Position numbers and translations under genes: made by a program
DNA from: Escherichia phage EPFV3-03/2025
Length of the DNA stretch: 64,000 nt
Strand: one strand, 5' to 3'
Sequence record: PV435126.1
The notes under the pieces: model-generated
Told to the model about the DNA's origin: nothing
The model's input: the letters and a program-made list of their open reading frames with translations, nothing else
Database searches by the model: none
Part shown: in pieces, positions 1,397-53,166 of the stretch
Layout of the letters: each line of letters opens with the position of its first letter
How positions within the stretch are numbered: the stretch's first letter is position 1

Positions 1397-3994
1397 ATGC
1401 GTATTCAACACAACATTGATAACGTATTTCAGATGATTGAGGGGCACAGGAAGTGCCTCGATAACAACACAGGAATTACCAATCTCCCTACGCAGAACAA
1501 GCTGGTAAACCAGGATGGACTTATAGCGTCAGGTTGGTCAGGGAGTAAGATAAGTAATGATTGGGCAATGCATGAAGCTCAGGCTGTGTTGATTCTGGGG
1601 TACATTGAGGCATATAGGGCATCAAAAAGCGATTTTTATCTAGATAGGGCCAAAGAAGCTTGGGAAGCCTACAACAGTCATCTTCTGGGTGCATATGCAG
1701 TAGAAAGTAAAATGCAAAGATTGTCCCACTACCCATTATCCACAGATGGAGTTCCATCACATGGTGGGTTTAAAGATGTAGTGGTGTCTTTTACCAACGG
1801 TAGAGGAAAAATCCCAGCTGGATCTCCTACATGGGGTGAATACCTAGACAAGGCATTCCAAGCGTATAACGGTGTGCTAGGAAGAAACACTGTAGACTCT
1901 GATGTCTACGGCGGCACAGATGCTAACCCAAATTGGACAACATCTGGATTAAGTTGGTGGGTTGAGTGGTATATAGCATGGGATGGTAACCGCTATTGGG
2001 CCAACGGTAGCATAGCCGACAGTGGTCATACGTCTGTAGAGTTCGGCACAATCCAACTGCAGGACAAGGGTGTTACAGGCAGCCACAAGGTAACCTACTG
2101 TGTGAGATTGCCACAAGAGCAGGGTGGATCGGTGATACCTGCTGGATCCCCTGTAATTGTAAATCCTATAAATGTGGTTGCAGATAATCAAGCCCCAGAG
2201 TTGGACGGGGAGGAAATGTGGTGTGACGCTTGTTATCAACTCTACACCTTGACAGGTGAGGAAAAGTATTACACAGCGTTCAAGCAGTCTTACAACAAGC
2301 TGCTTAATTTCAGCGATATAAATGCCTACGACAAACTGTTTAGAAAGACCACGTTAATTAAGGCACCGTTCACAGATGGTACTTGTCTCGTCGCAGGAAC
2401 AGTTCCTGTCATGAGCAGGGACAGTGACGGGTATATCAATTTTAGAATGAACGCACGTCAGCCTTGCGAAATAATTCAAAAAGGGACTACATACAAGATA
2501 GGCAGAGATGCTGAAATTGTTATGAATTTCGGAGGAGAAGGGGTTCTGTTCCAGCCACACTTCATCCTTAATGATGGCAACAATAACAAAAAACAGTATA
2601 GGATAGGTGTCCCTTTTGGAGGGGCAGAGGTAACAGAGACAGTTGCCAAGGTTACTGATTTCGTAGAGGTGGTAGGTAAAGATGGTAACCCGTATCTCTT
2701 ACCAAAAGAGGAAAACATTGTCGTAAGCGGTGGCGCTAGTGTTAGTATGCAGTACGATACCGACATTTATAACCACTCAGACAACTTCACCCGTTGCAAC
2801 ATAGCAAGGGGCAAGGTAACTTTCAATTTTGGAAGAGAGATTTCTTTAAACTCAGTAACTTATCGATCAGATGATGAGATGATAAGGGTCAAATTTCTTG
2901 ACAAAGACCGTTGGTTATGGTATGCTGATCTATATGCCACTAACGGGCAATGGATAACAGAAACTCTTACCCTGGGCGATTTTAAATTAGACCCAACACA
3001 ACCTCATCACACAGAAGATGAGATTAAACCTTTCTTTGCTAATCCTAAGGGGCTCACCTCTGTAGATTTCAGCCTAAGCGACAGGCAGATAGGCAATGGC
3101 TTGTTCGATCTGTATTGCGTCAATACGCTGCCGCAATTTTATGTTGCAGATAGAGATGCTTATCTGATCTGGTTTAGTGTATGGATGGCAAGCAAGACAG
3201 AATCAACAGCCAAGGTTGGTGATTGCTATGTCAGAAACTACAAGCAAGGCGCATACAGACACACTCCTGGTGTGTTACCTGCTGGAAAGGTAATAGATAA
3301 GGAAAATTATCTTCTGGAAGAAAAGCCAAATTGGCCCTATCCTGGCATGCAGTATCCGGTAGTCTACTGTATGGGTGCGGAAAACATAGATCGTCAAAGA
3401 TTGGCAAATACAATTGGATTTATGTACGACTCCCAAGTTTGGTATAATAACACATTTAAAACAGAAGGACCAGTTGCATCTCGCTACGTATGGCAGAGGG
3501 GTAATGAGGGGTTGACTGGTTGGTGGGAGATGGTAGATAACTCTAAACTACAATCAAGAGCCTTTGTTGCTGCGTGCCGCACACTATATGAGCTTAAGAA
3601 ACATAAAGAACCTGTTGATGAAAGACTGTTCCTGTTCTGCCAGAAATGGGCATGGTTCCTCAACAGATTCCAGTCATCTCATTCCGGAAATCTCCCTACA
3701 GACTTTAATACCTCCGGTGGATATTCTTATCAGGACAGAGGGGACAGAATGTGGGTGGTAGGTGAATGGCTTGCAGGTTGCTGCTGGCTGGGTCTTTGCG
3801 GGTATTCAGAGACAATACCCCAAATAGATATTGTTGTAGAAGCCTGTGTGAAGTTACTGCAAAAGCACCACTTCATTAACGGGGACAATGTTTTAAACGG
3901 CTGCTGGGCAGTCTCTGATCCGGTGGGCTATCACTCTGGCGAAATCCTTCGCGGTCTAGGCCTTTATGCTCAATACCGTGGATTGTACCTTTAA
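1397..3994 (+). CDS. large structural protein, possible distal tailspike/receptor-binding module
   Basis: 865-aa ORF starting 2 nt after the stop of the anchor-domain ORF; sits in the tail-fiber cluster. No recognisable catalytic motif. Confidence 0.5.
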   Translation: MRIQHNIDNVFQMIEGHRKCLDNNTGITNLPTQNKLVNQDGLIASGWSGSKISNDWAMHEAQAVLILGYIEAYRASKSDFYLDRAKEAWEAYNSHLLGAYAVESKMQRLSHYPLSTDGVPSHGGFKDVVVSFTNGRGKIPAGSPTWGEYLDKAFQAYNGVLGRNTVDSDVYGGTDANPNWTTSGLSWWVEWYIAWDGNRYWANGSIADSGHTSVEFGTIQLQDKGVTGSHKVTYCVRLPQEQGGSVIPAGSPVIVNPINVVADNQAPELDGEEMWCDACYQLYTLTGEEKYYTAFKQSYNKLLNFSDINAYDKLFRKTTLIKAPFTDGTCLVAGTVPVMSRDSDGYINFRMNARQPCEIIQKGTTYKIGRDAEIVMNFGGEGVLFQPHFILNDGNNNKKQYRIGVPFGGAEVTETVAKVTDFVEVVGKDGNPYLLPKEENIVVSGGASVSMQYDTDIYNHSDNFTRCNIARGKVTFNFGREISLNSVTYRSDDEMIRVKFLDKDRWLWYADLYATNGQWITETLTLGDFKLDPTQPHHTEDEIKPFFANPKGLTSVDFSLSDRQIGNGLFDLYCVNTLPQFYVADRDAYLIWFSVWMASKTESTAKVGDCYVRNYKQGAYRHTPGVLPAGKVIDKENYLLEEKPNWPYPGMQYPVVYCMGAENIDRQRLANTIGFMYDSQVWYNNTFKTEGPVASRYVWQRGNEGLTGWWEMVDNSKLQSRAFVAACRTLYELKKHKEPVDERLFLFCQKWAWFLNRFQSSHSGNLPTDFNTSGGYSYQDRGDRMWVVGEWLAGCCWLGLCGYSETIPQIDIVVEACVKLLQKHHFINGDNVLNGCWAVSDPVGYHSGEILRGLGLYAQYRGLYL

Positions 3995-4029
3995 CATAGG
4001 GGGCTGTTTGCCCCCTTTCAGGAGAAAGA

Positions 4030-7000
4030 ATGGCTGATATTAAAGTTGTCAGAATTGAATCTCTTCCTGCCACTACTGCAGTGACAGAGGATGATTACCT
4101 GGTTGTTCAACAACCAGACCTGACCCGTCGTGTAAAAATTGGCGATGTTGTCCATATAGATGGGACTGTTTCTCATGTAATCTCCTTTAAGGAAGGTGGT
4201 AAGTTAAACGGCCCAATGGATTTTGCCTACTTCGAAGAGGAAGACCTCTACCTGCGTTGGAAAGGCGAATTTCCACACACTGTTCCTGCACTATCTTCAC
4301 CATACGCTGATGGTGGGATTACCGATGCTGCATGGATGGTATATACAGACCCTTCCTTGAGAGAGGAGCTGGAGTCTACCATTGGCGCATCTATGATCAT
4401 GACAGCCGAAGGGCAGTCTGTACAGGATGTAATGGATGTTACTGTTCAGACAGCCAACGATGCCAAAGCACTTGCACAGCGGGTAGATTTTGGTACAGTG
4501 CATACTGTAGGTGATGTTATTCACCTTGTCAACTTTGTTGGTCCTGCAGTTATTGAAGAGGGAAGAACTACTAACTACCCTTCTGAAGCAGCTGGTGAAA
4601 AATTTCTGAACGGTGTGGTATCTCGTCGTGATACTACAACTGTTGATGGTATTTTCCGTGGCGCTACCTCCGGAGCCATGTATACCATTGCAGTAACCAA
4701 TGGTGTGGCAACAACAAAAAGAATAGCACTTCGTGATGAATTTAAGCGCCTGGAGGCAAACAACCCAACAAGAACAGTTATCCGTGCCGGGGATGATTTA
4801 AACACGGCGGGGTACTTGCAGCTTGATGCAACAGGCCGTTGGGGTATGTGGAACCAGCAAACAGCTTCGTGGCAACCTCTTGCTATAGAGCAAGGCGGTA
4901 CAGGAGCCAGAGATGCCGCTGGAGTCCGTATCAATATCGGTGCTTTCTATAAGCAACGTGCAGCCCTTGAGGCAAATTTCAATATCAATAACTTGACTGG
5001 TAATCAGGACGGCATATACTATCAACCGATGACTGCTAATGCAACTGAGGCAAATGGTTATCCTGCAGGTTCTGGTGCTGGTCACTTGATTGTTTGGCAG
5101 AACAATGCTAACGGTGGCACAGGCTGTCGTCAGGAATACTATCCATTCTCTAACGTGGATGTTTGGTATTTGAGAACCTATCAGGCCAACACAAACCAAT
5201 GGACTGCATGGCAGCCGATGGTCAGACCTCGGAATGATGACACCTTCAGATCTCATATCGGCCTTGGTAAAAACAACTCCCCTGCTTTCGGGAACCTTTA
5301 CTTAGCTCAATACTCAGGAGATGTTAAAAATGCTTCAGGTATTCTCCATGGAGATAAATATGACGCTGATGGTGTTCTTGAGCACGGTTATAGGATCTAC
5401 TCAGAAGTAAGAAACGACAATAAGGCTTGGTTAACAATCCACCTTCACAAAGGCGCAAAAGGATCTGAAACTCATAGGTATTTAGGCTTCCGTGAGGATG
5501 GGGTATTAGACTGTCCTAAATACATGCAGGTTGGGGATCTTACTGGTCAGCTGACAAACTGGGGACTTGGAGAATGGATTCGTAGTTCAGGGGCAGAAAG
5601 AGGGTTCTGGGGTTCCAAGAAAGCTGCTAAGATGGTCGTCTGGGATGGAGGGATGGATGAGTCCGGTAACGGCACTTTGGAATGGGGTGTTTATAACAAC
5701 CGGAAGGCCAAGTGGGAACCTTTACCTCACGCCGCAGGTGGTACTGGGGTTACAACTTTAGCAGAGGCTCAGAATCTGTTCAAAGTTCCTGCGGCTGCAG
5801 GTGTAAAAGATTTCTTAACACTGCCAAGAACCGCAGGGATGGAAGATGGGAAATATTACCCAATCATCGTTAGGACAGATCCGTACTATGCTCCGACCAC
5901 AGGGACAGATATCACCCTAGTTACCAGATCGTCATCTGGCGGTGACCCTATGAACTGTTCTACACTACAGTGCCACTATAGGACTGGCGGTTGGACAGAT
6001 AGAGGAGACTCTTTCTACGGGGTAGTAAATTTCTACCAAAATGAAAAAGCACTTCTTGGAATGGTTGCTCCAACAAGGGGTAAACAAGAGTATGTTGCTT
6101 TCTATGCAGAGGCGCGCGCTTTCCCTGTCAGCGTATACGCAAGTAGAAATGTTGTCGAAGTGTTTACCAGAGAACAAGATTACCAAGTCGGCCCTGTAAC
6201 AGATAATCAGGATGGTGTTAAGTTTGTTGCACCTCTCCAGTCAGCTGACTTGAATCTTGCTGTTCTTGGAGATAACATTACTAACACCAGGCCTATTGTT
6301 GACTTCAAAGGCACCTCTGGGTTCTACACTGGTGGCGGCACACAGTGGCACTATATAGGCACTGCTGAACGCTATGCTGTGATGAGCAAAATGAATATGC
6401 CAAAAGTCGAGCTGTGGGCAGACGGTATTGACTATTTGTGCTACGGCAGTCCTAGAAAGGCATTATTCTCTAACGCTGGATTCCAGTGTGCATCGGACGG
6501 AACAGAGGATCTAACTAACGGCACGTTTACCTCTAAATGCGGTAATGGCGCTGGCCTTAAAGGCCAAGCAGAGTTCAGGTCTACTCCAGAAGCTGGTCAA
6601 GTTATTGTTCGAGATGTTGTGGGAACAGCTCATAGATTCTACAACTTCAACAAAGATGGTACTTTCTCAGCCCCAGGTGGTTTTGTATGCCATACTGGTG
6701 GAGACTGGAACAACCAGTTCGGGCCCAATAACCCGTCAAAAATAATGGCTGGCAACGTCAACGGACCAGAAGGTTCGATGGTTGTTGGTGGACTGTCTGT
6801 GGCTTTTTCTGGGAACTATGCTTTCCAAATGGCTGGTCGCCTTGATCAGTTATACACCAGGTCTATCGAGGGTGGTAACCATAGAGCGTGGAACAAGGTC
6901 ATACAACACAGAGGGCAAGGTCTGGGGGTTAATGACCTTAACGACTATAAAGGGGATAGGGAAGGTTTTTATCATCAGGAGGCCAATGCTCAAGCCACAC

Positions 7001-7830
7001 CTGATAGAAACTACCCATGCTCCCGAGCAGGTACGCTTATAGTGTATAGGAACTACGCCAATGTTCCAGAGAGTTGCGTACAGGAGTATATATCATATCT
7101 TGGGGAAAAATTCCTGCGTTATGGAACAACAATAGGTAGTGTTTTCACATGGGGACCTTGGCAGCAGCTTGGTGGTAAGGGAATTACTCTTAAAACCGCA
7201 GGCTCCAATCTTGACCCGGAGTTCATGATACATACAGGTGGCGGGACTGATGTTACCAACACTTCCAACATGCCTTCTAATACAGGCAGGATGTACTACT
7301 GGGGTAATGGCGCAGACAGGAAGAACGTGCTTGAGTTCCAGATAAACGACAACGCTACATCTGCCAGTTGGGTATGGCATTGTGGTGCTAAGACAGATGA
7401 GGCCAAGTCAAGGTACCTTGCTGTCAACGGCGTAGTAGAGTGCACCGCTGTCAGCCAGAGCTCTGACCGTGACCTGAAGGATAACATAGAGGTTATTCCT
7501 AACGCGCTGGAAGCTATCCGTAAGATGAAGGGCTATACCTACACTCTAAAAGAGAATGGTATGCCTCACGCGGGGGTAATTGCTCAAGAGGTCATGGAAG
7601 CATTACCTGAAGCTGTTGGCTCTTTCGTGAAAAGGAAAGAGGTTCCTGGTCCTACTCAAGATGGTATTCCTCTGATGACCGAGGAAAGATTCTATAATGT
7701 TGACTATGCGGCTGTAACAGGATTGCTTGTTCAGGTTTGCAGAGAACAAGATGATAGAATAACCTCCCTTGAGGAACAGGTTAAAAAACTAACAGAGGTT
7801 GTTACCGAGTTACAAGGAAAATTGAAGTAA
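4030..7830 (+). CDS. tail fiber protein with C-terminal intramolecular chaperone (peptidase S74-like) domain
   Basis: 1266-aa ORF. N-terminal anchor domain shared with 727-1395. C-terminal SSDRDLKDNIEVIPNALEAIRKMKGYTYTLKENG...HAGVIAQEV...VDY matches the autoproteolytic chaperone domain of endosialidase/L-shaped fibers. RBS GGAGAAAG upstream; terminator downstream. Confidence 0.8.
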   Translation: MADIKVVRIESLPATTAVTEDDYLVVQQPDLTRRVKIGDVVHIDGTVSHVISFKEGGKLNGPMDFAYFEEEDLYLRWKGEFPHTVPALSSPYADGGITDAAWMVYTDPSLREELESTIGASMIMTAEGQSVQDVMDVTVQTANDAKALAQRVDFGTVHTVGDVIHLVNFVGPAVIEEGRTTNYPSEAAGEKFLNGVVSRRDTTTVDGIFRGATSGAMYTIAVTNGVATTKRIALRDEFKRLEANNPTRTVIRAGDDLNTAGYLQLDATGRWGMWNQQTASWQPLAIEQGGTGARDAAGVRINIGAFYKQRAALEANFNINNLTGNQDGIYYQPMTANATEANGYPAGSGAGHLIVWQNNANGGTGCRQEYYPFSNVDVWYLRTYQANTNQWTAWQPMVRPRNDDTFRSHIGLGKNNSPAFGNLYLAQYSGDVKNASGILHGDKYDADGVLEHGYRIYSEVRNDNKAWLTIHLHKGAKGSETHRYLGFREDGVLDCPKYMQVGDLTGQLTNWGLGEWIRSSGAERGFWGSKKAAKMVVWDGGMDESGNGTLEWGVYNNRKAKWEPLPHAAGGTGVTTLAEAQNLFKVPAAAGVKDFLTLPRTAGMEDGKYYPIIVRTDPYYAPTTGTDITLVTRSSSGGDPMNCSTLQCHYRTGGWTDRGDSFYGVVNFYQNEKALLGMVAPTRGKQEYVAFYAEARAFPVSVYASRNVVEVFTREQDYQVGPVTDNQDGVKFVAPLQSADLNLAVLGDNITNTRPIVDFKGTSGFYTGGGTQWHYIGTAERYAVMSKMNMPKVELWADGIDYLCYGSPRKALFSNAGFQCASDGTEDLTNGTFTSKCGNGAGLKGQAEFRSTPEAGQVIVRDVVGTAHRFYNFNKDGTFSAPGGFVCHTGGDWNNQFGPNNPSKIMAGNVNGPEGSMVVGGLSVAFSGNYAFQMAGRLDQLYTRSIEGGNHRAWNKVIQHRGQGLGVNDLNDYKGDREGFYHQEANAQATPDRNYPCSRAGTLIVYRNYANVPESCVQEYISYLGEKFLRYGTTIGSVFTWGPWQQLGGKGITLKTAGSNLDPEFMIHTGGGTDVTNTSNMPSNTGRMYYWGNGADRKNVLEFQINDNATSASWVWHCGAKTDEAKSRYLAVNGVVECTAVSQSSDRDLKDNIEVIPNALEAIRKMKGYTYTLKENGMPHAGVIAQEVMEALPEAVGSFVKRKEVPGPTQDGIPLMTEERFYNVDYAAVTGLLVQVCREQDDRITSLEEQVKKLTEVVTELQGKLK

Positions 7831-7837
7831 CTGTTTT

Positions 7838-7866
7838 GCCCTCGCTTCGGCGGGGGCTTTTTGTTT
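7838..7866 (+). terminator. rho-independent terminator (GCCCTCGC-TTCG-GCGGGGGC + T-run)
   Basis: GC stem with UUCG tetraloop followed by TTTTTGTTT, immediately after the fiber stop codon. Confidence 0.7.
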
Positions 7867-7869
7867 GTA

Positions 7870-7898
7870 TTGCGTATTAACTTAAAATCTGGTAAAAT
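7870..7898 (+). promoter_or_regulatory. sigma70-like promoter with extended -10 (TTGCGT-17-TGGTAAAAT)
   Basis: -35-like TTGCGT, 17-nt spacer, TGG-TAAAAT; same architecture recurs near 13381. Confidence 0.4.
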
Positions 7899-7929
7899 AA
7901 CTATCATATTTGTTTAACCTGGAGGCACA

Positions 7930-8520
7930 ATGTTTTTATGGGAAAGGCCTAGATACCTCCCAGATATTAGATTGGAGTTACTGGCAGACATCGTTACATT
8001 TAAAAGCCCGTTTACAGGTAAGACGCAAAAAGTCACCTATGCCACTCCTAACTGGAAAGGCACTTTGACGGTTTCCAATATCAGCGAGTCTCAGTTGTTG
8101 GAGCTCAAAAGCTTTGTTGATCAGGTTTACAAAGATGGGAACATTTTTCTTATCAAGGCTTATGGGCATTCAGTTACCTCCAACGAGCCAATCGCTCTCG
8201 GACCGACTGGTAACGACGATTTTTTGAAGACGGTTGGTTGGGAGCCTAACAGGGATATAGCCAGAGCTGGGGATAAAATATCTGTCAATGATGAGTTGAA
8301 AGTGGTGACAGCCTCAGTACGAAGCGATGGTGTTGGGGCTGCTGTTATAAACATATCTCCAAGACTTAGGAAACCTATTGCCGCAGGGGATACCATGAAG
8401 ATAATAACTCAATCTCCGAAGGGTAGATTTCATATCAGAGATCTTTATAAAATTAAGCAAAAGGTTGATGCTATGCAGAAAGGTGACAATATAGTTATCA
8501 ACTTCTTTGAGGATTTCTAA
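7930..8520 (+). CDS. hypothetical structural protein
   Basis: 196-aa ORF with RBS GGAGG 6 nt upstream. Confidence 0.5.
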   Translation: MFLWERPRYLPDIRLELLADIVTFKSPFTGKTQKVTYATPNWKGTLTVSNISESQLLELKSFVDQVYKDGNIFLIKAYGHSVTSNEPIALGPTGNDDFLKTVGWEPNRDIARAGDKISVNDELKVVTASVRSDGVGAAVINISPRLRKPIAAGDTMKIITQSPKGRFHIRDLYKIKQKVDAMQKGDNIVINFFEDF

Positions 8521-9073
8521 GATGATAAGAGCGCCATTAGATAATTTATTTCTTGAAAAGCTAGAGCTTGATGGTGTTGAGATCTTAATTGCTGCAAAGC
8601 TAGAGCTGCCAACAGGTACTGTCAGGGTGTGCTCAGGAACTGGTGTTGTAGTGATTGAGGGTCAACATTTCATAGGGATAGGTGGATCAGCAACATTGAC
8701 TGCTGTGTCTGAGAAAGATGCCACCAACTTCGGATCTGTGGTAGCAACATTGAACGGGTTTGATCCCAAGTATGTAGGTGATCTTCTGAAGACTGAGTAT
8801 TCTGGTTGCCGTGCCACGTTGTATATCACCGCTATGGAGAATGGTTTACCTGTTACAACTAATGGCTTGTTTGACGGCCTTATAACAGACATGGCTATTC
8901 AGACAGGGGAGAATAGCGCTCTGTCCATATCCATCTCTTCTATCTTCAACAGTTGGTTAAGAGGTTTTCCTTATCGATACACAGAGGAAAGCCATAGCTC
9001 AAGAAACGATAATGACAGATTTTTTAAATATGTGGATCAGGTGGCAAGCCGCCCGATCATTTGGGAGGTTTAA
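8507..9073 (+). CDS. hypothetical structural protein
   Basis: 188-aa ORF; track start overlaps the previous gene, true start may be the in-frame ATG near 8522. Confidence 0.5.
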   Translation: MRISKMIRAPLDNLFLEKLELDGVEILIAAKLELPTGTVRVCSGTGVVVIEGQHFIGIGGSATLTAVSEKDATNFGSVVATLNGFDPKYVGDLLKTEYSGCRATLYITAMENGLPVTTNGLFDGLITDMAIQTGENSALSISISSIFNSWLRGFPYRYTEESHSSRNDNDRFFKYVDQVASRPIIWEV

Positions 9074-9498
9074 TGAGCACACATCCTCGTTTAGTAGACT
9101 GGCAAGAAAGGTTGTGGAAAGTATTTGACGAAGAAGCCACCGTCCCGTTTGAATGGGGATTCCACGATTGTTGCACTTTTGCGGCTAAATGTGTTGATGC
9201 CCAATACGGAACAGATTTTCTTTCTAACTTTGAAGGAACGTATAAAACAGAGTTGGAAAGCAAGAGATGGTGCATGCTCCGTTTCAAAACTACACACCTA
9301 CCTACTATTTTTGATCTCTTTTTGACTAGACTGGATACTCCTAAGCAGATTCAGCGTGGTGATATTGTTATTTTCGAAGGTCTGAACGGCCTCACGGCTG
9401 GTGTGTTCTGGAACAACCAGATTTGGGCGAAAGGTGATAAAGGGATCTTTACGTTCGATATGAAAGATTCTATCGTTGTTGATGTCTGGAGGTATTAA
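9073..9498 (+). CDS. hypothetical protein
   Basis: Track ORF 9061-9498; internal ATG near 9073 (MSTHPRL) follows GGGAGG and is the more likely start. Confidence 0.45.
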   Translation: MSTHPRLVDWQERLWKVFDEEATVPFEWGFHDCCTFAAKCVDAQYGTDFLSNFEGTYKTELESKRWCMLRFKTTHLPTIFDLFLTRLDTPKQIQRGDIVIFEGLNGLTAGVFWNNQIWAKGDKGIFTFDMKDSIVVDVWRY

Positions 9499-46252: not shown

Positions 46253-47017
46253 TTGAAATTTATCTACAAAGAACACCACCACAAAGGTGTTGTGTGGAGT
46301 CTATTTGATGGGTCTGGTGGTGCAGTCATTGACTGGGCAAAAGCTGGGTATCTGTGCCTGTGCTTTAATGCAGAAGGTGCTGACCATGGTAGCTATGCAG
46401 AGGTGATAACCGATCATCCCAACATTCACTACGTGGATTATTGGATTGACCCGTGGTTCCCTCAAGAAACTTTTTGCATGTACCCAGCTCCAGACTTTAT
46501 TCTTGCATTTCCTCCGTGCACGCATTTAGCAGTATCAGGTGCTGCACATTTTAAGAAAAAGCTGGCTAAGGACCCCCTGATCCAAATTAATGCTGTAAAA
46601 GATGCTCGGGTTGCGGAAGAGCTGGGAGAGATCTACGATTGCCCGTGGCATGTAGAGAATCCTGTGGGTGTTATGTCCACACTGTGGCGCAAACCTGATT
46701 ACCGTTTTCACCCTTCGGATTATGGCGGGTATTTACCGGAAGATGATGTAAACCCATGGTTTCCTGAATTTATAGCTCCACGTGATGCCTATCCAAAAAT
46801 AACTTGCGGATGGATAGGTAACGGATTTATAATCCCGGCCACAAAACCTGTCCCGCAGATAGTGGATGCGGTTAGTGGTTATTCTATGCAACACGCTAAG
46901 CTAGGTGGAAAGAGTGCAAGGACGAAGATGATTCGAAGCCTTACACCACGTGGCTGGGCTAAAGCTGTATTCTTAGCAAACGAGCCTGCAGTAAGGAGCA
47001 GAATTAATGGGCAGTAA
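46253..47017 (+). CDS. compact DNA (cytosine-5) methyltransferase-like protein
   Basis: Track ORF 46223-47017 (GTG inside the terminator); more likely TTG near 46253 after GGAGA. Motif I-like LFDGSGG, motif IV-like FPPCTH (PC), motif VI-like ENPVG. Confidence 0.5.
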   Translation: MKFIYKEHHHKGVVWSLFDGSGGAVIDWAKAGYLCLCFNAEGADHGSYAEVITDHPNIHYVDYWIDPWFPQETFCMYPAPDFILAFPPCTHLAVSGAAHFKKKLAKDPLIQINAVKDARVAEELGEIYDCPWHVENPVGVMSTLWRKPDYRFHPSDYGGYLPEDDVNPWFPEFIAPRDAYPKITCGWIGNGFIIPATKPVPQIVDAVSGYSMQHAKLGGKSARTKMIRSLTPRGWAKAVFLANEPAVRSRINGQ

Positions 47018-49085
47018 ATTCATGGCATCTGCATACAACCGTTTCGGTGAGCCAAACCCGAAAGCAACCAAATATAAAAGTGGGGGGAGTGTGAAACGAG
47101 ACTATCGTGATGAAAAAGAGGTCGAAACTGTAGAGACTGTTTTAGAAAATACTAAAATTGTCCCTGTTCCACAACAAAATATCGGACTGATGGCTGCACA
47201 ATACTTCGGTGTGCGATCAGCATTGTCTCAAGAAGATGGGGTAACGGTCACTGCAACATATTTCCCATATTACGACCGCTACGGTAATCTATCTGGCTTT
47301 AAAAAGCGCGACTGGACAATCCCTAAAGAGCAAAGGGGCCATTTCTCAGTTGTTGGCATAGTAAAGGCCAACTCTCAGATGTTTGGTCAAAAGCTGTGTG
47401 CATCCTCCAACAACCGTAAACAGATTAACGTTTGCGAGGGGGAGGGTGATGTTATTGCAGCATGGCAAGCTGCATATCAGATACAAGTGAAAGGTATTCT
47501 CACCAATGCTAAAGCCCCAGCGAAGGTGAAGCAGTGGGCTAAAGAAGTTCAAGATGGGATTGATGCAGTTATCGACGGCGGGGATCTGGCAGGAAAACCC
47601 TGCCTGCCTTTTGTTGGAATTAACTGCGGGTGTGCAAACGCCGTAGATACTTTTGCTAACAATGAGAAATTTATCCGTAGCTACGGAACAGTGGTCCTTG
47701 CAATGGACAACGATGCAGCTAACGAGGTAGAGAAGCAAAAACACGTTATCAAAGGTGTTGAGGCCACACATAATATCGCAGCATTTTTGATGGCTGATAA
47801 CGTTTACCACGTGGAATACCCTGGTGAAGTAAACGATCCTGATGGTGTAAAAGACATTCGTGACATGCTGAAGGCTAAAAAGCTGGAAGATATTGTCAAC
47901 ATGTTCCGTCACCCAGTCAAATATGTGCCTGATGCTGTATCTGATTTAGAAGACTTCTCCATTGAGTCTCTTCGTAAGAAGACTTCCAATGGCGTAGATA
48001 TCAGTGCGGAGTTCCCTAAATTGCAGAAGATGCTGAAAGGGCTCCACAAAGGCACCTTGATGATGCTGACAGGCCCATCTGGCGGTGGTAAAACAACTGT
48101 AGCCAAGAAGCTGGAACACTGTATTGCAAGATACTTGATGGATCCAACATGCCCTAAAGCTGATGACTATGAAGAGGATGATCGCCTGTGCCTGATTCAC
48201 CTTGAAGAGGATCCTGAGGAAGCAATCAACTCTCTATACGCCAACCAGCTGGGATTTGATGTTAAAGAGTTTGTTGAAGACCCCAGTCAGTTCCTTACCG
48301 ACCAGGAGCACGCTGAGATCCATCAATCTTGGGCCAAGGCCGGAAAAATTAAAGTGTTCAAGCATTTCGGCTCCATCCCTGTGGATGAGCTGATCACTAA
48401 GCTTAAACAAATGGTGTGTCTGTATCACTGCCGTTACATTGTGCTGGATCACCTGTCCATGGTGATTTCAGGGCTTAATGTTAAGGATGAGCGCAAAGAA
48501 CTTGACATGGCTATGACTCAACTAGCTGCGTTCTGTAAGCAGTTTAATGTGTTTATCTTGGTTATTGCTCACCTGAAGCGCACAGAGATTATACCTCCTA
48601 AGGATAAGGATGGGAATCCGTTGCCTTTCTGGTATCCTGTACGAAAAGAGAACCTTCGTGGTAGTGCCGGATTGGAGCAACTCAGCTGGGTAGTTGTTGG
48701 GGTAGAGGCAGAAGAGATGGTGGATCGTTCTCGTGGGCGTGTCCGACTAGTAGGTCTTAAAAACCGCCCAGCAAAAACGTTAGGTATTGCGGACACTTTG
48801 GTTATGGATCCTCACACAGGCAAGTTCCACGATGCCAGCAATTGGTATTGGGATAAAGAAATGCAGATGTTTACAGACGGAGAAGGTGGGGAGGTTGTTT
48901 GGAGACCTCAGGCTATGTTTGAGGATCAGGATCATGCAGTTGTGGAAACACCCATGGGTAAGGTTGTGGCTGATAAGGTTGTAACTCCTACTGTTACCCC
49001 AGTTGACACGCAGGAAGATCCTCAGTATGATGATCCGTCCTCTAACCACGTCCCCGGTTTTGAAGACGACGAAACACCTTTTTAA
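47007..49085 (+). CDS. DNA primase/helicase (T7 gp4-like: TOPRIM + DnaB-type helicase)
   Basis: 692 aa; TOPRIM-like CEGEGDVIAAW and VVLAMDNDAAN; helicase Walker A LTGPSGGGKTT and Walker B IVLDHLS. Confidence 0.65.
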   Translation: MGSKFMASAYNRFGEPNPKATKYKSGGSVKRDYRDEKEVETVETVLENTKIVPVPQQNIGLMAAQYFGVRSALSQEDGVTVTATYFPYYDRYGNLSGFKKRDWTIPKEQRGHFSVVGIVKANSQMFGQKLCASSNNRKQINVCEGEGDVIAAWQAAYQIQVKGILTNAKAPAKVKQWAKEVQDGIDAVIDGGDLAGKPCLPFVGINCGCANAVDTFANNEKFIRSYGTVVLAMDNDAANEVEKQKHVIKGVEATHNIAAFLMADNVYHVEYPGEVNDPDGVKDIRDMLKAKKLEDIVNMFRHPVKYVPDAVSDLEDFSIESLRKKTSNGVDISAEFPKLQKMLKGLHKGTLMMLTGPSGGGKTTVAKKLEHCIARYLMDPTCPKADDYEEDDRLCLIHLEEDPEEAINSLYANQLGFDVKEFVEDPSQFLTDQEHAEIHQSWAKAGKIKVFKHFGSIPVDELITKLKQMVCLYHCRYIVLDHLSMVISGLNVKDERKELDMAMTQLAAFCKQFNVFILVIAHLKRTEIIPPKDKDGNPLPFWYPVRKENLRGSAGLEQLSWVVVGVEAEEMVDRSRGRVRLVGLKNRPAKTLGIADTLVMDPHTGKFHDASNWYWDKEMQMFTDGEGGEVVWRPQAMFEDQDHAVVETPMGKVVADKVVTPTVTPVDTQEDPQYDDPSSNHVPGFEDDETPF

Positions 49086-49143: not shown

Positions 49144-52100
49144 ATGAGCATGTGGTCGTTCGATTTTGAGGCCTCTGGCTTGCTGGAAGACCCAGATCTT
49201 TATTATCACTGCGGTTTGTTTAAAGAGCTGAATAAGAACCGTTTTATGCTGTTCCTCCCCCTAAATGACCGCACACACTACTCTGAAGAGGATGTGGAGA
49301 AAGCTAAGAACTTCATTCTGGCAAAAAAGACCCTTTATACAGATTTTGAGGCTCGCATAGCAGATTTTTCAGAGTTGGAAGGCTGGCTTACAGGTAATTC
49401 AGATTGGTCACCTACGGCTTTGAACTGTCATAACTGCTACAGCTACGACTTTATGCTGATGGAAAGATTATCCGGTATTCATTTTGATATGTTCCGTGAT
49501 CCTAAATGCATGGGAACTATCAACGACCACCAGGTTAATCTGTTTGATACGTTAGCGATGAGTCGAATCTTGTGGCCTGACCGCCCTTTGCCAAAAGGTT
49601 GTCCGGACGCAGTATTCAATCCAGTTACCAAGAAAATGCAGCCTGTTGGGCCTCATGGCCTTATGGCATGGGGCTATGCCCTTGGTAACCAGAAAGTTCA
49701 AATCGATGACTGGCGTGAGCTTCCGCTGTGGAAGTATGTGGATCGTGTGTTCGAGGACGTTATCATTCAGGAGTTGCTCTGGAAGGAGTTGGTAGCTGAA
49801 TCAAAAGGTGTATTCTACGGCAAATCTGACATGCAGAACTTTATGTATGACCCTGCCAAAGAGAAGCCTAAAGGATTCAAGAAGATTACCTGGAAGAATG
49901 CATTACGCCGAGGCATGCTGCAGCATTTCCTGATGGAGCTGCAGGCTCGACAGGGTGTGTATTTCGACATAGATGGGGCTATTGCTTTACGTGACCGCTG
50001 CGATGCGTGGATGAAAGAGATCGCTGATCGTGTTGAACCACAACTTCCTTTAAAAGAGTTATCAATGTCTCAGCGGCCTAAGTTCCCTGAAAAGCCGTTT
50101 AACCAGGATGGGACAATCTCTAATAACGGTTGGAAATGGTTAAAAGACAAGCTTGGCTATCCTGTGGATATGGGTGCTTTAGAATTCAAAGCTCCGCCTA
50201 AGCGAGCCTTTACCTCCACAGGAGATGTCAGCAAAATGGGGATAAAATGGTGTGAAGAGATGGGCTGCAAAGACCCCGATAAGATGGCTGATTTCTTAAG
50301 GGGGTATATTAAAGGAACCTCTACACCGCACCCTTTACCTAAAGAACTAATGGATCAGGCAATAAGTGATCTGCAGCAGAAGCGGATGCCTGACTGCAAG
50401 ATACCTATGAAGATCAGCAACCAGGACGACATCAAGCGATACCTGATCAGTGCTGGTTGGCTCCCAACAATGTGGAGAACTAAGGATGTAACTAAAGACA
50501 GCAAGAAGAAAGCTTTACCTGATGCAGATGTTGATGCACGAGTATATGCATATATGGACGAGCTTTTGGAGTCAGAGTATTGTGACCTGATTATCAACTT
50601 CTGGAACAAAACTGATGCCAAGTTCCAGACAACCGTGCACAAGTTCCGAAGCTTCCCTAACTCAGAAAGGATTAAAAAGGAAGTGTTTGGGAAGATACGT
50701 AGAAAAGCCAGAGCGCTTATTACTTCTCCGCAACTGAAAGATACGTTTGGACACCTGTGCCCGAATCTTGAAAAATTGAACGGGGAGATGGCTAAAGATA
50801 TCGTTTTGTGGTTATCATTGCGAAACCGCAGATCGGTCCTTGATCCAATCAAGGAGGATAAGGTTGATACTGGTCTTCTTAATCATCCACGTTTGAAGAT
50901 TGACCATAAGCTTCCTGCTAAAAGTTCTGGATTAACAAACACTTCAAGACAGAAACACAGCATTTGTGCAAACATGCCTAAACCATCTCCTAAAGTGGTT
51001 ATGGGTAAAGAGATGCGTAGTCTGTGGGGTGTTCCTCCAGGATACTTTGAGATCGGTATTGACGGGTCTAACTTAGAGCAGCTTATTGGGGCTTGGGGTG
51101 CCTTTGAGTTTGACAACGGCCTGTATTATGATGTTGTAAGTAACGGCGATGCACACTGTTATTCAGGAGATACACAAATTCTCACGGAGAAAGGGTGGGT
51201 GAGGTTTGAAGATCTTGATCCGGGAACACAAGTGTTCCAGTACGATCACAACACCTCGTCGATGAACCTTGTTACTCCATTAAATTACGTTAAGCGTAGT
51301 TATTGTGGGGATATGTATCATTTCCACAACAGCAGTGTGGATTTTATGGTTACAGATCAACACAGGATGCTGACCGTGGATCACAGAAGCAATAAATTGT
51401 TTGAAGATTTGGCAAAAGACCTGAAAGCAGGTAAAGGGTCTAATTCAGGAAGAAGGTTTATCCATGCGGCAGAGTTTTATGGGAATACAACCTTATCTCC
51501 TGCCCAGGTTAATTTGCTTATTGCTATTCACGATGATGGGTACTTGCATACAAATAAGGACGGCAGCATCGTGTGCAGGATTCAGGCCGGGAAGGGCAGA
51601 AAAGTTGCAACGCTTTTAGATACTTTTTCTGCTCTAAGCCTTAGTTATGTAGAGCAGAGCGGGAAAACCACAAAAGGAGGCTTACTGGCGAGAAGGTTCC
51701 AATTCCACGTTCCGTCCTGGGTATTTGAGTTTTTGGACAGCAATAAGGATTTCACCTACAACCTGATGGACCTTGATAAAGAATCTAAAAACCTGTTTAT
51801 AGCTTCTTTATCTAACTGGGACGGGTGGGTATCTCCCGAAGGTGGAAAAGTTGCCTACTACTCTCAGGCCGAGTGCAGGAAGAAATCTGTAGAGGTTGTG
51901 TCTGCGCTGGCTACTCAGTGTGGTTTACGGAATAATACGGTGGCGATTCACAAAAAAGGTCGTTCCGTACAGCACAGAATCACGATTGGTAGCAAACAGA
52001 GAGCAGGGTTGCTGACACTATCTAAAGAGCCTGTCGGGGTGAGCGGTTCTTTGGTTTATTGCGTTACCGTCCCTTCTGGAGCAATCATTGTGAGAAGGAA

Positions 52101-52536
52101 TGGTAAAGTGGCAGTGTGCGGTAACTGTAATAACGCCAAAGCTTACTCTTCTGTAGCAGGCAAGGAGATTTCCCGTAACGATGGTAAGCCTGTCACGTAC
52201 GGTGTTATGTACGGGGCACAAAAAGATAAAGTTGCAGACATGCTGGATATCTCTCCAGAGTTGGGGCAAAGGGTAATCGATGCGCTTTGGGATGCCAACC
52301 CAGGTCTTAAGGGGCGTAAAGAGGATCTGGAGAAATTCTGGGAAGCAACAGGTAAGAAATTTATCTACTCTTTTGACGGTCATGCCATCTGGACCCGATC
52401 TAAACACTCTTTACTTAATGCATACCAACAGAATGGTGGTGCATCGTTGTGTGACTTAGTTGGGATACTCATGCACCACCAAATGGTGAAGCGTGGGTGG
52501 TACGATGAAGGTGTCCGTCGTATTATTTATTACCAT
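49144..52536 (+). CDS. family A (T7-like) DNA polymerase, exon 1, containing an in-frame intein
   Basis: ExoI-like FDFEASGL and YHCGLF at the N-terminus; motif A-like GIDGSNLEQLIGAW; motif B-like RNDGKPVTYGVMYGAQ. The track ORF stops at HK* exactly where motif C (HDE) is expected; reading resumes in exon 2. Confidence 0.8.
51157..52125 (+). mobile_element. intein with LAGLIDADG-type homing endonuclease domain, inserted in the DNA polymerase
   Basis: 323 codons between polymerase motifs A and B. Begins CYSGDTQILTEKGW (intein block A), block B-like VTDQH, LAGLIDADG-like LLIAIHDDGY and FIASLSNWDGW, ends ...VAVCGN followed by Cys (+1). Flanking exteins (NGDAH / CNNAKAY...) align with the T7 polymerase GDIH-TKNQ region. 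Confidence 0.75.
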
Positions 52537-52812
52537 AAATAACATTGTGGCTTCATAGAGTAATCTATGTCGAATAACCTCTTTAACTGCGGGAAGCCTA
52601 AACCTTATGGCAAGGTAATCCGCAACGAAGCGCTCAAAAGAGCGAACGCTCAGAGGCCATTCCGAAAGGAAGTAGACCAGCAAGTGCGGTCGAAATGGGA
52701 GGATTCCTGTGGTTGCTTATCATAGGAATATGAGATGGTCCGATCCTACGTGAAAACGTATGGCTATGCACGTAATGGTGCGGGGTAGCTTAACGACCTA
52801 CCTGAACTATTG
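52537..52812 (+). ncRNA. group I self-splicing intron (no ORF) in the DNA polymerase gene
   Basis: 276 nt between exon 1 (ends ...YYH, last nt U) and exon 2 (DEYQ...). P-like AACUGCGGGAAG (~52585), Q-like AAUCCGCAAC (~52617), R-like GUAGACCAGCAAG (~52670), S-like GAGAUGGUCCGA (~52731). Possible P1 pairing of exon CCAU with intron GUGG; intron ends in G. Confidence 0.7.
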
Positions 52813-53166
52813 GATGAGTACCAACTTCAAGTCCCTGACACGCCTAAGTATAAGACTGTGTACACCTTCGACACAATTGAAGAACTGGAAGCATTTAAGG
52901 CAGAACAGGAGGCCAAACTTCATGTGTTTGACGGTCATAAGTACAAAAAGGCACGCAAGGATGAGAACGGAAACGAAGTGGTTGACAGAGACGGAAACAC
53001 GGTGTACGATCCTATTCTGAACGATGACGGAAAGCTTGAACTTATCTGGAGCCCTGTGGGTGAAATGGTGGTGCATTGCTTCTGGCAAGCTTCTAAAATG
53101 ATGGGCGTCCCGTTCCAGATCACAGGTGAATACCTGTGCGGTCGTAATTGGGGTGATTGTCACTAA
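52813..53166 (+). CDS. family A DNA polymerase, exon 2 (motif C to C-terminus)
   Basis: In the track as ORF 52810-53166 with an artefactual TTG start. Encodes DEYQLQV... (completing HDE) and ends ...GRNWGDCH, paralleling the T7 polymerase C-terminus ...GPNWAICH. Confidence 0.75.
   Translation, partial: DEYQLQVPDTPKYKTVYTFDTIEELEAFKAEQEAKLHVFDGHKYKKARKDENGNEVVDRDGNTVYDPILNDDGKLELIWSPVGEMVVHCFWQASKMMGVPFQITGEYLCGRNWGDCH

Follow-up and report, generated by a model that had tools for sequence, protein, structure and literature searches.

The residue before the C-terminal Asn of an intein is usually His, and Gly takes this position in the Chlamydomonas ClpP intein. Inteins without the penultimate His have been discussed before, and restoring the His gives variable effects (PMC5050341). 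The intein in the RDF of mycobacteriophage Bethlehem, of which Gly316 is the penultimate residue, splices completely; its splicing is slowed by the mutation G316H, and the endonuclease was found to be toxic to E. coli (PMC5050341). The AceL NrdHF intein begins with Ala1 and is of class 3 by experiment, with Cys124 at position 4 of block F (F:4) forming the branch. Its Arg69 at position 11 of block B (B:11) touches the carbonyl of the C-scissile bond, and G145H abolishes activity through a clash with this Arg (PMC7891396). Here we examine an insertion with a Gly-Asn ending in the DNA polymerase gene of Escherichia phage EPFV3-03/2025, within a stretch of 64,000 nucleotides of record PV435126.1 (the window). 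The insertion is very probably a mobile, splicing-competent, bifunctional LAGLIDADG intein in a family A DNA polymerase, a reading based on its exact boundaries, family membership, predicted fold, catalytic conservation, purifying selection and mobility signature. It adds a new and hitherto unannotated member, situated at a recurrent PolA site, to a known family of phage inteins characterized by Cys1, Cys at F:4 and a Gly-Asn end.

The insertion occupies positions 51157-52125 on the + strand (969 nucleotides, or 323 codons, in frame and free of stops in translation) within an open reading frame (ORF) of 1,132 codons at 49144-52542. It starts with CYSGDTQILTEKGW and ends with VAVCGN, is preceded by GDAH and is followed by Cys at position +1 (TGT, 52126-52128), with junctions reading ...NGDAH / insert / CNNAK... 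These boundaries had been proposed in a first-pass annotation made from the letters alone, and all of them were seen on translation. The surrounding region of the genome is 92-97% identical to Vequintavirus (rV5-like) phages of E. coli. Alignment with rV5 stops at 51156/51157, where the window is longer by exactly 969 bases, and sequence comparison shows the insert to be precisely missing from the polymerase alleles of rV5, FV3, APECc02 and ECP26. The 323 residues are not an integral polymerase domain in related phages, exactly this segment being missing from 108 of 114 related records. The features of the locus, with the evidence for each, are as follows.

49144-51156, + strand: N-extein, the 5' part of the polymerase, 671 codons, ending in ...NGDAH (ORF list; PHROG phrog_17; motif A, GIDGSNLEQ, on T7 D475).
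51157-52125, + strand: intein, 323 codons, Cys1 to Asn323 (absent from rV5, FV3, APECc02 and ECP26; homologs in unrelated proteins; AlphaFold 2 model; fold matches).
51157-51471, + strand: N-terminal HINT subdomain, residues 1-105, with blocks A and B (family conservation; alignment to AceL NrdHF).
51472-52008, + strand: LAGLIDADG endonuclease domain, residues about 106-284 (conservation; model; Foldseek; Pfam matches in the family; ratio of nonsynonymous to synonymous substitution rates, dN/dS).
52009-52125, + strand: C-terminal HINT subdomain, residues 285-323, with blocks F and G (family conservation; features of AceL NrdHF, PMC7891396).
52126-52173, + strand: start of the C-extein, comprising the Cys+1 codon and a 48-nucleotide intein-linked tract, a putative co-conversion or donor-derived flank (allele comparison).
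52126-52536, + strand: C-extein, rest of exon 1, from motif B to the His of motif C (gapless T7 alignment through motif B and HDE).
52537-52812, + strand: group I intron, 276 nucleotides without an ORF, splitting motif C between His and Asp-Glu (Rfam RF00028; intron-less alleles).
52813-53166, + strand: polymerase exon 2, DEYQLQ...GRNWGDCH and stop (ORF list; in-frame product of 925 amino acids; motif C on T7).

The N-extein matches the DNA polymerase profile phrog_17 with E=3.7e-57. In silico removal of the intein and the intron yields an in-frame family A polymerase of 925 amino acids, and raises the Pfam DNA_pol_A score from 17.6 to 28.4 bits. Positions 469-658 of T7 DNA polymerase align to this product without gaps (E=2e-13), across motif A (D475), NGDIH/TKNQ, motif B and motif C (VHDEIQV). 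The insertion point lies between motifs A and B, as assigned in the first-pass annotation, and directly follows the residue corresponding to T7 His506. T7 His506 contacts the incoming nucleotide. The host protein of the intein, the phage's essential family A DNA polymerase, is interrupted in its fingers/active-site region.

A word-indexed protein search with the 323-residue insert gave no matches, which reflects the sensitivity of that method. An exhaustive HMMER search, by comparison, recovered 7,418 representatives with E<=1e-3, of which 1,967 reach E<=1e-10. Searching phage genomes with tblastn identified full-length homologs of 26-30% identity inside RNR beta, NadV, RNR alpha, PhoH and thymidylate synthase, and homologs inside many mycobacteriophage genes; overall, full-length homologs are 21-30% identical, their hosts including a mycobacteriophage RDF. 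PHROG profiles named PhoH, RNR and ThyA match the insert because those proteins host homologous inteins. From the family we extracted 91 full-length members, each less than 50% identical to the others, and all family counts given below refer to this sample. A profile (A1) built from 31 family sequences, which also served as the AlphaFold alignment, matches the solved AceL NrdHF intein with E=1.8e-12. Among these 31 sequences, individual members match Pfam Intein_splicing (5/31, best E=2.5e-8) and LAGLIDADG_3 (8/31, best E=1.3e-5). A single-sequence AlphaFold model was unusable (pLDDT 36) and was replaced by the alignment-based model (pLDDT 95.5, pTM 0.92). Foldseek searches with the latter retrieved TliVMA, PI-SceI, PI-PfuI, PhoVMA and PI-TkoII (E from 1.8e-14 to 4e-9, TMq 0.60-0.71) and next, for the HINT part, AceL NrdHF (TMt 0.83). 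For the central domain, the free-standing endonucleases I-SceI and I-DmoI were matched, as was the bI3 maturase. According to the predicted structure, the insert has a HINT fold. The identification of the insert as an intein, first proposed from its motifs, is now backed by its exact absence from other alleles and by family, profile and predicted-fold evidence, and the agreement goes well beyond what chance would give.

Same-family inteins with a Gly-Asn end, unannotated or merely hinted at in their records, were also seen in RNR beta of Tenacibaculum phage PTm1 and Pseudanabaena phage PA-SR01, NadV of Staphylococcus phage Stab23 and relatives, RNR alpha of Salmonella phage SP3 and other T5-like phages, PhoH of Acinetobacter phage YMC13/03/R2096, ThyA of Acinetobacter phage B9, and the RDF of Bethlehem (7578-9296, - strand). 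The relatives P0011, P0012 and P0052 are inserted after KPNxxH and start with Ser, Lys or Ala instead of Cys, while keeping the Gly-Asn/Cys end; these could represent the class 3 type within the same sequence family. No further copy of this intein family was found in the 64-kb window.

The residues required of an intein (C1, T66, H69, N323 and C+1) are all present in the window, and are conserved in 91/91, 89/91, 91/91, 89/91 and 91/91 family members, respectively. Block A contains C1, T10 and G13, and block B contains T66-x-x-H69-R70-M71 at 51352-51369 (T66 and H69 being those of VTDQH); C1, T10, G13 and H69 are invariant in the family. Both blocks, including the TxxH of VTDQH, are present as cited in the first-pass annotation. 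Block F reads VYCVTVPSG (52054-52080), with Cys302 at F:4, and block G ends in C321-G322-N323. In the family, Cys302 is conserved in 91/91, P306 in 85/91 and G322 in 88/91 members. The +1 residue is Cys in 60, Ser in 25 and Thr in 6 of them.

Neither the penultimate His (G:6) nor the block F His (F:13) is present in the window copy, which has Gly322 at the former position and no His in VPSGAIIVRRNG. Both His residues are typical of inteins but do not strictly define them, and relatives with published data splice in their absence (PMC5050341, PMC7891396). The first-pass annotation had noted the penultimate Gly and considered it a feature of a minority of inteins that affects C-terminal cleavage. 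The Gly is indeed there, but it is the norm in this family, in which G:6 is Gly in 88/91 members and the Gly-Asn end as a whole is found in 87/91, and a published relative with the same residue splices fast. The Gly-Asn end co-occurs with Arg at B:11 (56/91), absence of the block F His, a Pro-x-Gly kink and the Cys at F:4 (91/91). The penultimate Gly is a conserved signature of a large phage intein family and no peculiarity of the window copy. By homology to AceL NrdHF, Arg70 is a likely helper of Asn323 cyclization.

We infer that the intein splices, because the polymerase is essential in seven viable isolates and because the Bethlehem RDF intein splices (PMC5050341). According to the proposed mechanism, the group I intron would leave the mRNA first. 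After translation of the precursor, the HINT domain would remove the 323 residues and join ...GDAH to CNNAK..., giving the polymerase of 925 amino acids. The most likely chemistry would begin with an N-S acyl shift at Cys1, aided by T66 and H69, after which the thioester would move to Cys+1 and Asn323 would cyclize. Cyclization would probably be aided by Arg70 at B:11, as in AceL NrdHF, because Gly replaces the usual His and block F is without His. Class 1 initiation at Cys1 is the default that we take as our starting assumption.

The same intein could instead follow a class 3 or hybrid route, in which Cys302 at F:4 attacks the N-scissile bond or takes the thioester from Cys1, so that an internal branched intermediate precedes transfer to Cys+1. 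We consider this route unlikely, although of the alternatives weighed here it survives best. It would account for the invariant Cys at F:4, a position at which class 1 inteins usually have Asp (PMC7891396), and it is consistent with the kinship to AceL NrdHF, which is experimentally of class 3 and is the closest solved relative by both profile and HINT fold. These two inteins share Met at B:12, Arg at B:11, the Pro-Gly kink, the lack of a block F His and the Gly-Asn end. More distant relatives without an N-terminal nucleophile (P0012 with K1, P0052 with A1) still have GN/C, and Ser1 or Cys1 is carried by 3/37 inteins with the WCT triplet (PMC2807308). By contrast, Cys1 is likewise present in 91/91 members, which is unexpected if it were dispensable, and the TxxH at B:7/B:10 is typical of class 1. 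Moreover, the family never has Trp at B:12, and G:5 in the window is Cys rather than Thr. The homologous RDF intein was handled as a class 1 intein by Kelley et al. (2016), in whose paper we found no C1A test (PMC5050341).

Measured against the definition of class 3, the window intein has the Cys at F:4 (Cys302), yet an N-terminal nucleophile is present both here and in 91/91 relatives. The remainder of the WCT triplet is replaced by Met71 and Cys321; at G:5 the family has Thr in 35, Ser in 30 and Cys in 18 members. Full class 3 membership was rejected on the grounds of the invariant Cys1 and the lack of Trp at B:12. A class 3 or relay route through Cys302 in the window intein is a tentative proposal. 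A shade more doubtful is the broader idea that the whole Cys1/Cys-F:4/Gly-Asn family uses Cys302 as an obligate internal thioester station, either as class 3 despite Cys1 or in a relay from Cys1 through Cys302 to Cys+1. If true, the family would link the mechanisms of class 1 and class 3. The two invariant cysteines (Cys1 and Cys F:4) are one of the points that give this intein its interest.

The central domain carries two LAGLIDADG motifs, LLIAIHDDGY at residues 120-129 (51514-51543, with D127) and FIASLSNWDGW at residues 214-224 (51796-51828, with D222). The first-pass annotation had placed two such motifs about 95 residues apart, and the spacing from D127 to D222 is exactly 95 residues. D127 and D222 are each conserved in 90/91 and Lys149 in 91/91 family members. 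In the AlphaFold 2 model, D127-G128 closes helix 115-127 and D222-G223 closes helix 208-222, each helix being followed by a beta-hairpin, and the duplicated alpha-beta-beta-alpha-beta-beta-alpha core order is present. The model thereby predicts a single-chain homing endonuclease of the LAGLIDADG type in the centre, with D127, D222 and K149 as its putative catalytic residues and with an activity and target that are inferred. As a side observation, motif 1 in the Vequintavirus clade reads HDDG (51529-51537, H125-D126-D127), compared to a family consensus of QADG (Gln 76/91, Ala 86/91); the additional Asp beside the catalytic Asp is unusual.

Only six other phages in the databases carry the insert, namely YP-6, 241Ecol014PP, Mangalyan, JEP1, NHEP1 and VB-EcoM-WM (WM), that is, 6 of about 114-133 related phage records (~5%), 114 of which share the upstream flank. 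None of the six carrier records annotates an intein. All occupied alleles (7/7, the window and these six) read GGC GAT GCA CAC / intein / TGT AAT AAC GCC AAA GCT TAC TCT TCT..., whereas all sampled empty alleles (4/4) read GGR GAC GCR CAC / CAA AAC AAT GCT GAG GCA TAT ACA AAA... The +1 residue is accordingly Gln in empty and Cys in occupied alleles. The empty site of rV5 and FV3 is GGRGACGCRCAC / CAAAACAATGCTGAGGC, compared to GGCGATGCACAC / TGTAATAACGCCAAAGC for the joined flanks of the occupied allele.

Away from the junction, polymerase alleles share 92-97% identity with the window whether or not they carry the intein. Intein and first 48 downstream nucleotides are 99-100% identical among six phages, with sharp boundaries on both sides, and the 48-nucleotide tract alone is 100% identical in six intein-bearing phages. 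In WM, which represents a second lineage, intein and tract are 88-90% identical. Versus the empty alleles, identity over the tract drops to 56-60%. A comparison of the two intein lineages gave a synonymous divergence (dS) of 0.53 and, for the HINT part as well as for the endonuclease part, a dN/dS of 0.08-0.09, and the intein ORF is intact in 7/7 copies. This pattern points to a unit that moves horizontally together with a short co-conversion tract, to selection having acted on the endonuclease, and to recent mobility of the intein. The endonuclease, or that of very recent ancestors, would cut intein-less polymerase alleles during co-infection, and repair would copy in the intein and about 48 nucleotides of downstream flank, including the Cys+1 codon.

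Alternatively, splicing may be intact with no homing in Vequintaviruses, the patchy distribution arising from vertical descent and ordinary homologous recombination in co-infection. The small share of carriers among related genomes would fit such a history, as would the strong difference of all sampled empty flanks from the occupied flank, which may make them resistant targets, and the departure of motif 1 from the family consensus. Both catalytic Asp residues and Lys149 are nevertheless kept, and dN/dS of the endonuclease is as low as that of the splicing domain. The intein and its tract are nearly identical over polymerase backgrounds that differ by 3-7%, with sharp edges, which is a homing-type pattern, and the endonuclease of the homologous RDF intein is toxic in E. 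coli (PMC5050341). We therefore hold a history without homing to be improbable.

Several results weigh against the reading of the insert as a mobile, splicing-competent LAGLIDADG intein. The window copy scores 23.5 bits against Pfam Hint_2 (threshold 28.4) and 14.1 bits against NCBIfam TIGR01445 (threshold 24.5), and has no direct Pfam LAGLIDADG match at E<=1. Over the first 18 downstream bases, about half are different between empty alleles and the joined flanks of occupied alleles, for which reason the sampled empty alleles may resist cleavage by the intein endonuclease. Finally, in AceL NrdHF, the closest relative with a published structure, the first nucleophile is the block F Cys and not residue 1, which renders the order of the splicing steps uncertain. 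As the curated profiles are insufficient for the window copy alone, we used family-level evidence. In the profile search that the first-pass annotation had suggested as a check, the Hint and intein signals of the single sequence stayed below threshold, and they are strong with the family profile and the predicted fold. A permanent, unexcised accessory polymerase domain, or a decayed intein left in place, would agree with these sub-threshold scores and with the GenBank labelling of the 1,132-codon product as plain DNA polymerase or hypothetical protein, but is extremely improbable, given that the insert would split the conserved D-x-H/T segment beside the deoxynucleoside triphosphate (dNTP)-binding fingers, that 95% of relatives function without it, that the same element occurs in at least seven unrelated enzymes, and that C1, T66, H69, N323 and C+1 are intact in seven independent viable isolates. 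Because the insert is polymorphic in presence/absence and has homologs in unrelated proteins, we rejected its reading as an integral polymerase domain.

The same polymerase gene contains a group I intron, which starts 411 nucleotides downstream of the intein and interrupts motif C (YYH/DE). It matches Rfam RF00028 with 64.7 bits (gathering score 50; E=3e-15), and no other Rfam element was found in the 64-kb window. The junctions read CAT/AAA...TTG/GAT GAG, with a U just before the 5' splice site and a G as the last intron nucleotide, and the intron-less NHEP1 (2680/2681 of the sequence analysed) and ECP26 (1903/1904) join TACCAT/GACGAA at exactly the same junction. Because of the intron that follows, the ORF ends with ...IIYYHK* at 52542, and another ORF runs from 52810. 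The intron is 276 nucleotides long in the window, rV5 and YP-6, the copies of the window and rV5 being identical; in Mangalyan (4894-5736 of the sequence analysed), FV3 (1912-2753) and APECc02 it contains an ORF for an HNH homing endonuclease and measures 842-843 nucleotides. The short form aligns poorly with these HNH-containing variants (67% over the shared part). Intron and intein states occur in nearly all combinations among alleles, and we conclude from this that the two elements move independently. Kinship to class 3, the polymorphism with its co-converted flank and the downstream intron were missed in the first-pass annotation, which to that extent was incomplete.

Public records mis-annotate this gene as a "DNA polymerase" or "hypothetical protein" of 1,132 amino acids and a separate fragment of 118 amino acids. 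In the window, an ORF of 86 amino acids at 52760-53020 (+ strand) and the TTG "start" (52810) of the 118-amino acid ORF are by-products of the intron, and the real exon 2 begins at 52813. In the rV5 RefSeq record NC_011041, the 5' end of the polymerase is split (gp224/gp223), with a 1-nucleotide indel relative to the window, and the "hypothetical proteins" gp222 and gp221 are annotated inside or across the intron (1501-1604 and 3956-4409 of the sequence analysed). The split is probably a sequencing or annotation artefact, and gp222 and gp221 are probably spurious ORFs. Furthermore, 16 unannotated "Campylobacter phage" records (MG0656xx, host C. jejuni) are ~94% identical to rV5-like phages over the polymerase, and their attribution to a C. 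jejuni host appears doubtful. Upstream of the polymerase, the ORF at 47007-49085 encodes a primase/helicase according to the annotation of relatives, and is without an intein of the same family; related Certrevirus phages were reported to carry a helicase intein (PMC7344957).

Our literature search yielded no published account of an intein in PolA or in a Vequintavirus. The essential polymerase of this phage needs repair twice, at the RNA level for the intron in motif C and at the protein level for the intein beside the dNTP-contacting His. Natural isolates comprise nearly every mix of intein presence or absence with an intron that is absent, short or HNH-bearing. The plus and minus alleles constitute a tractable E. 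coli system in which to study intein homing, co-conversion and fitness cost during phage co-infection. The Gly-Asn family, with fast splicing in the single tested member, may also interest protein engineers.

In comparison with known systems, the window intein aligns end to end with the Bethlehem RDF intein (gp51; GenBank gp52 "phosphoesterase"; E=1e-11). The two share Cys1, T-x-x-H-R, the block F Cys-x-x-V-P-x-G, Gly-Asn and a LAGLIDADG-type centre, and are of similar length (317 and 323 amino acids, respectively), with an identity of just 21%. The Bethlehem intein differs in its host, an actinophage metallophosphoesterase RDF, and in having Thr at G:5 and Val at B:12, where the window has Cys and Met. 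AceL NrdHF-1-1 (PDB 6ZGQ; Hoffmann et al. 2020, PMC7891396) resembles the window intein in the block B His-Arg-Met, Cys F:4, the Pro-Gly kink, the missing F:13 His and the Gly before Asn. By contrast, it is a naturally split class 3 intein with Ala1, is accompanied by a free-standing GIY-YIG gene where the window intein has an embedded LAGLIDADG domain, resides in RNR beta, and has Thr at G:5 and Ser at +1. PI-SceI, TliVMA, PhoVMA, PI-PfuI and PI-TkoII have the same two-domain architecture of HINT and single-chain LAGLIDADG endonuclease. They are only 10-14% identical to the window intein, however, with a penultimate His, usually Asp at F:4, lengths of 360-540 amino acids that include extra DNA-recognition regions, and eukaryotic or archaeal hosts.

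Closest in location are the metagenomic PolA inteins of P0007, P0009, P0016, P0017, P0018, P0030, P0046, P0097, P0104 and P0148, which belong to the same family (best 32-39% identity) and are inserted after D-x-H between motifs A and B. When the insertion site is compared with these PolA inteins, at least ten other PolA lineages have a same-family intein at the same D-x-H site. Their polymerases are diverged, and their +1 residue is mostly Thr or Ser, of the native type (T7 Thr507), whereas in Vequintaviruses Gln occupies +1 of the empty allele and the Cys comes with the intein. Other inteins lacking the penultimate His are isolated exceptions in His-Asn families; in the family of the window intein, by contrast, Gly-Asn is conserved and co-varies with changes in the active site.

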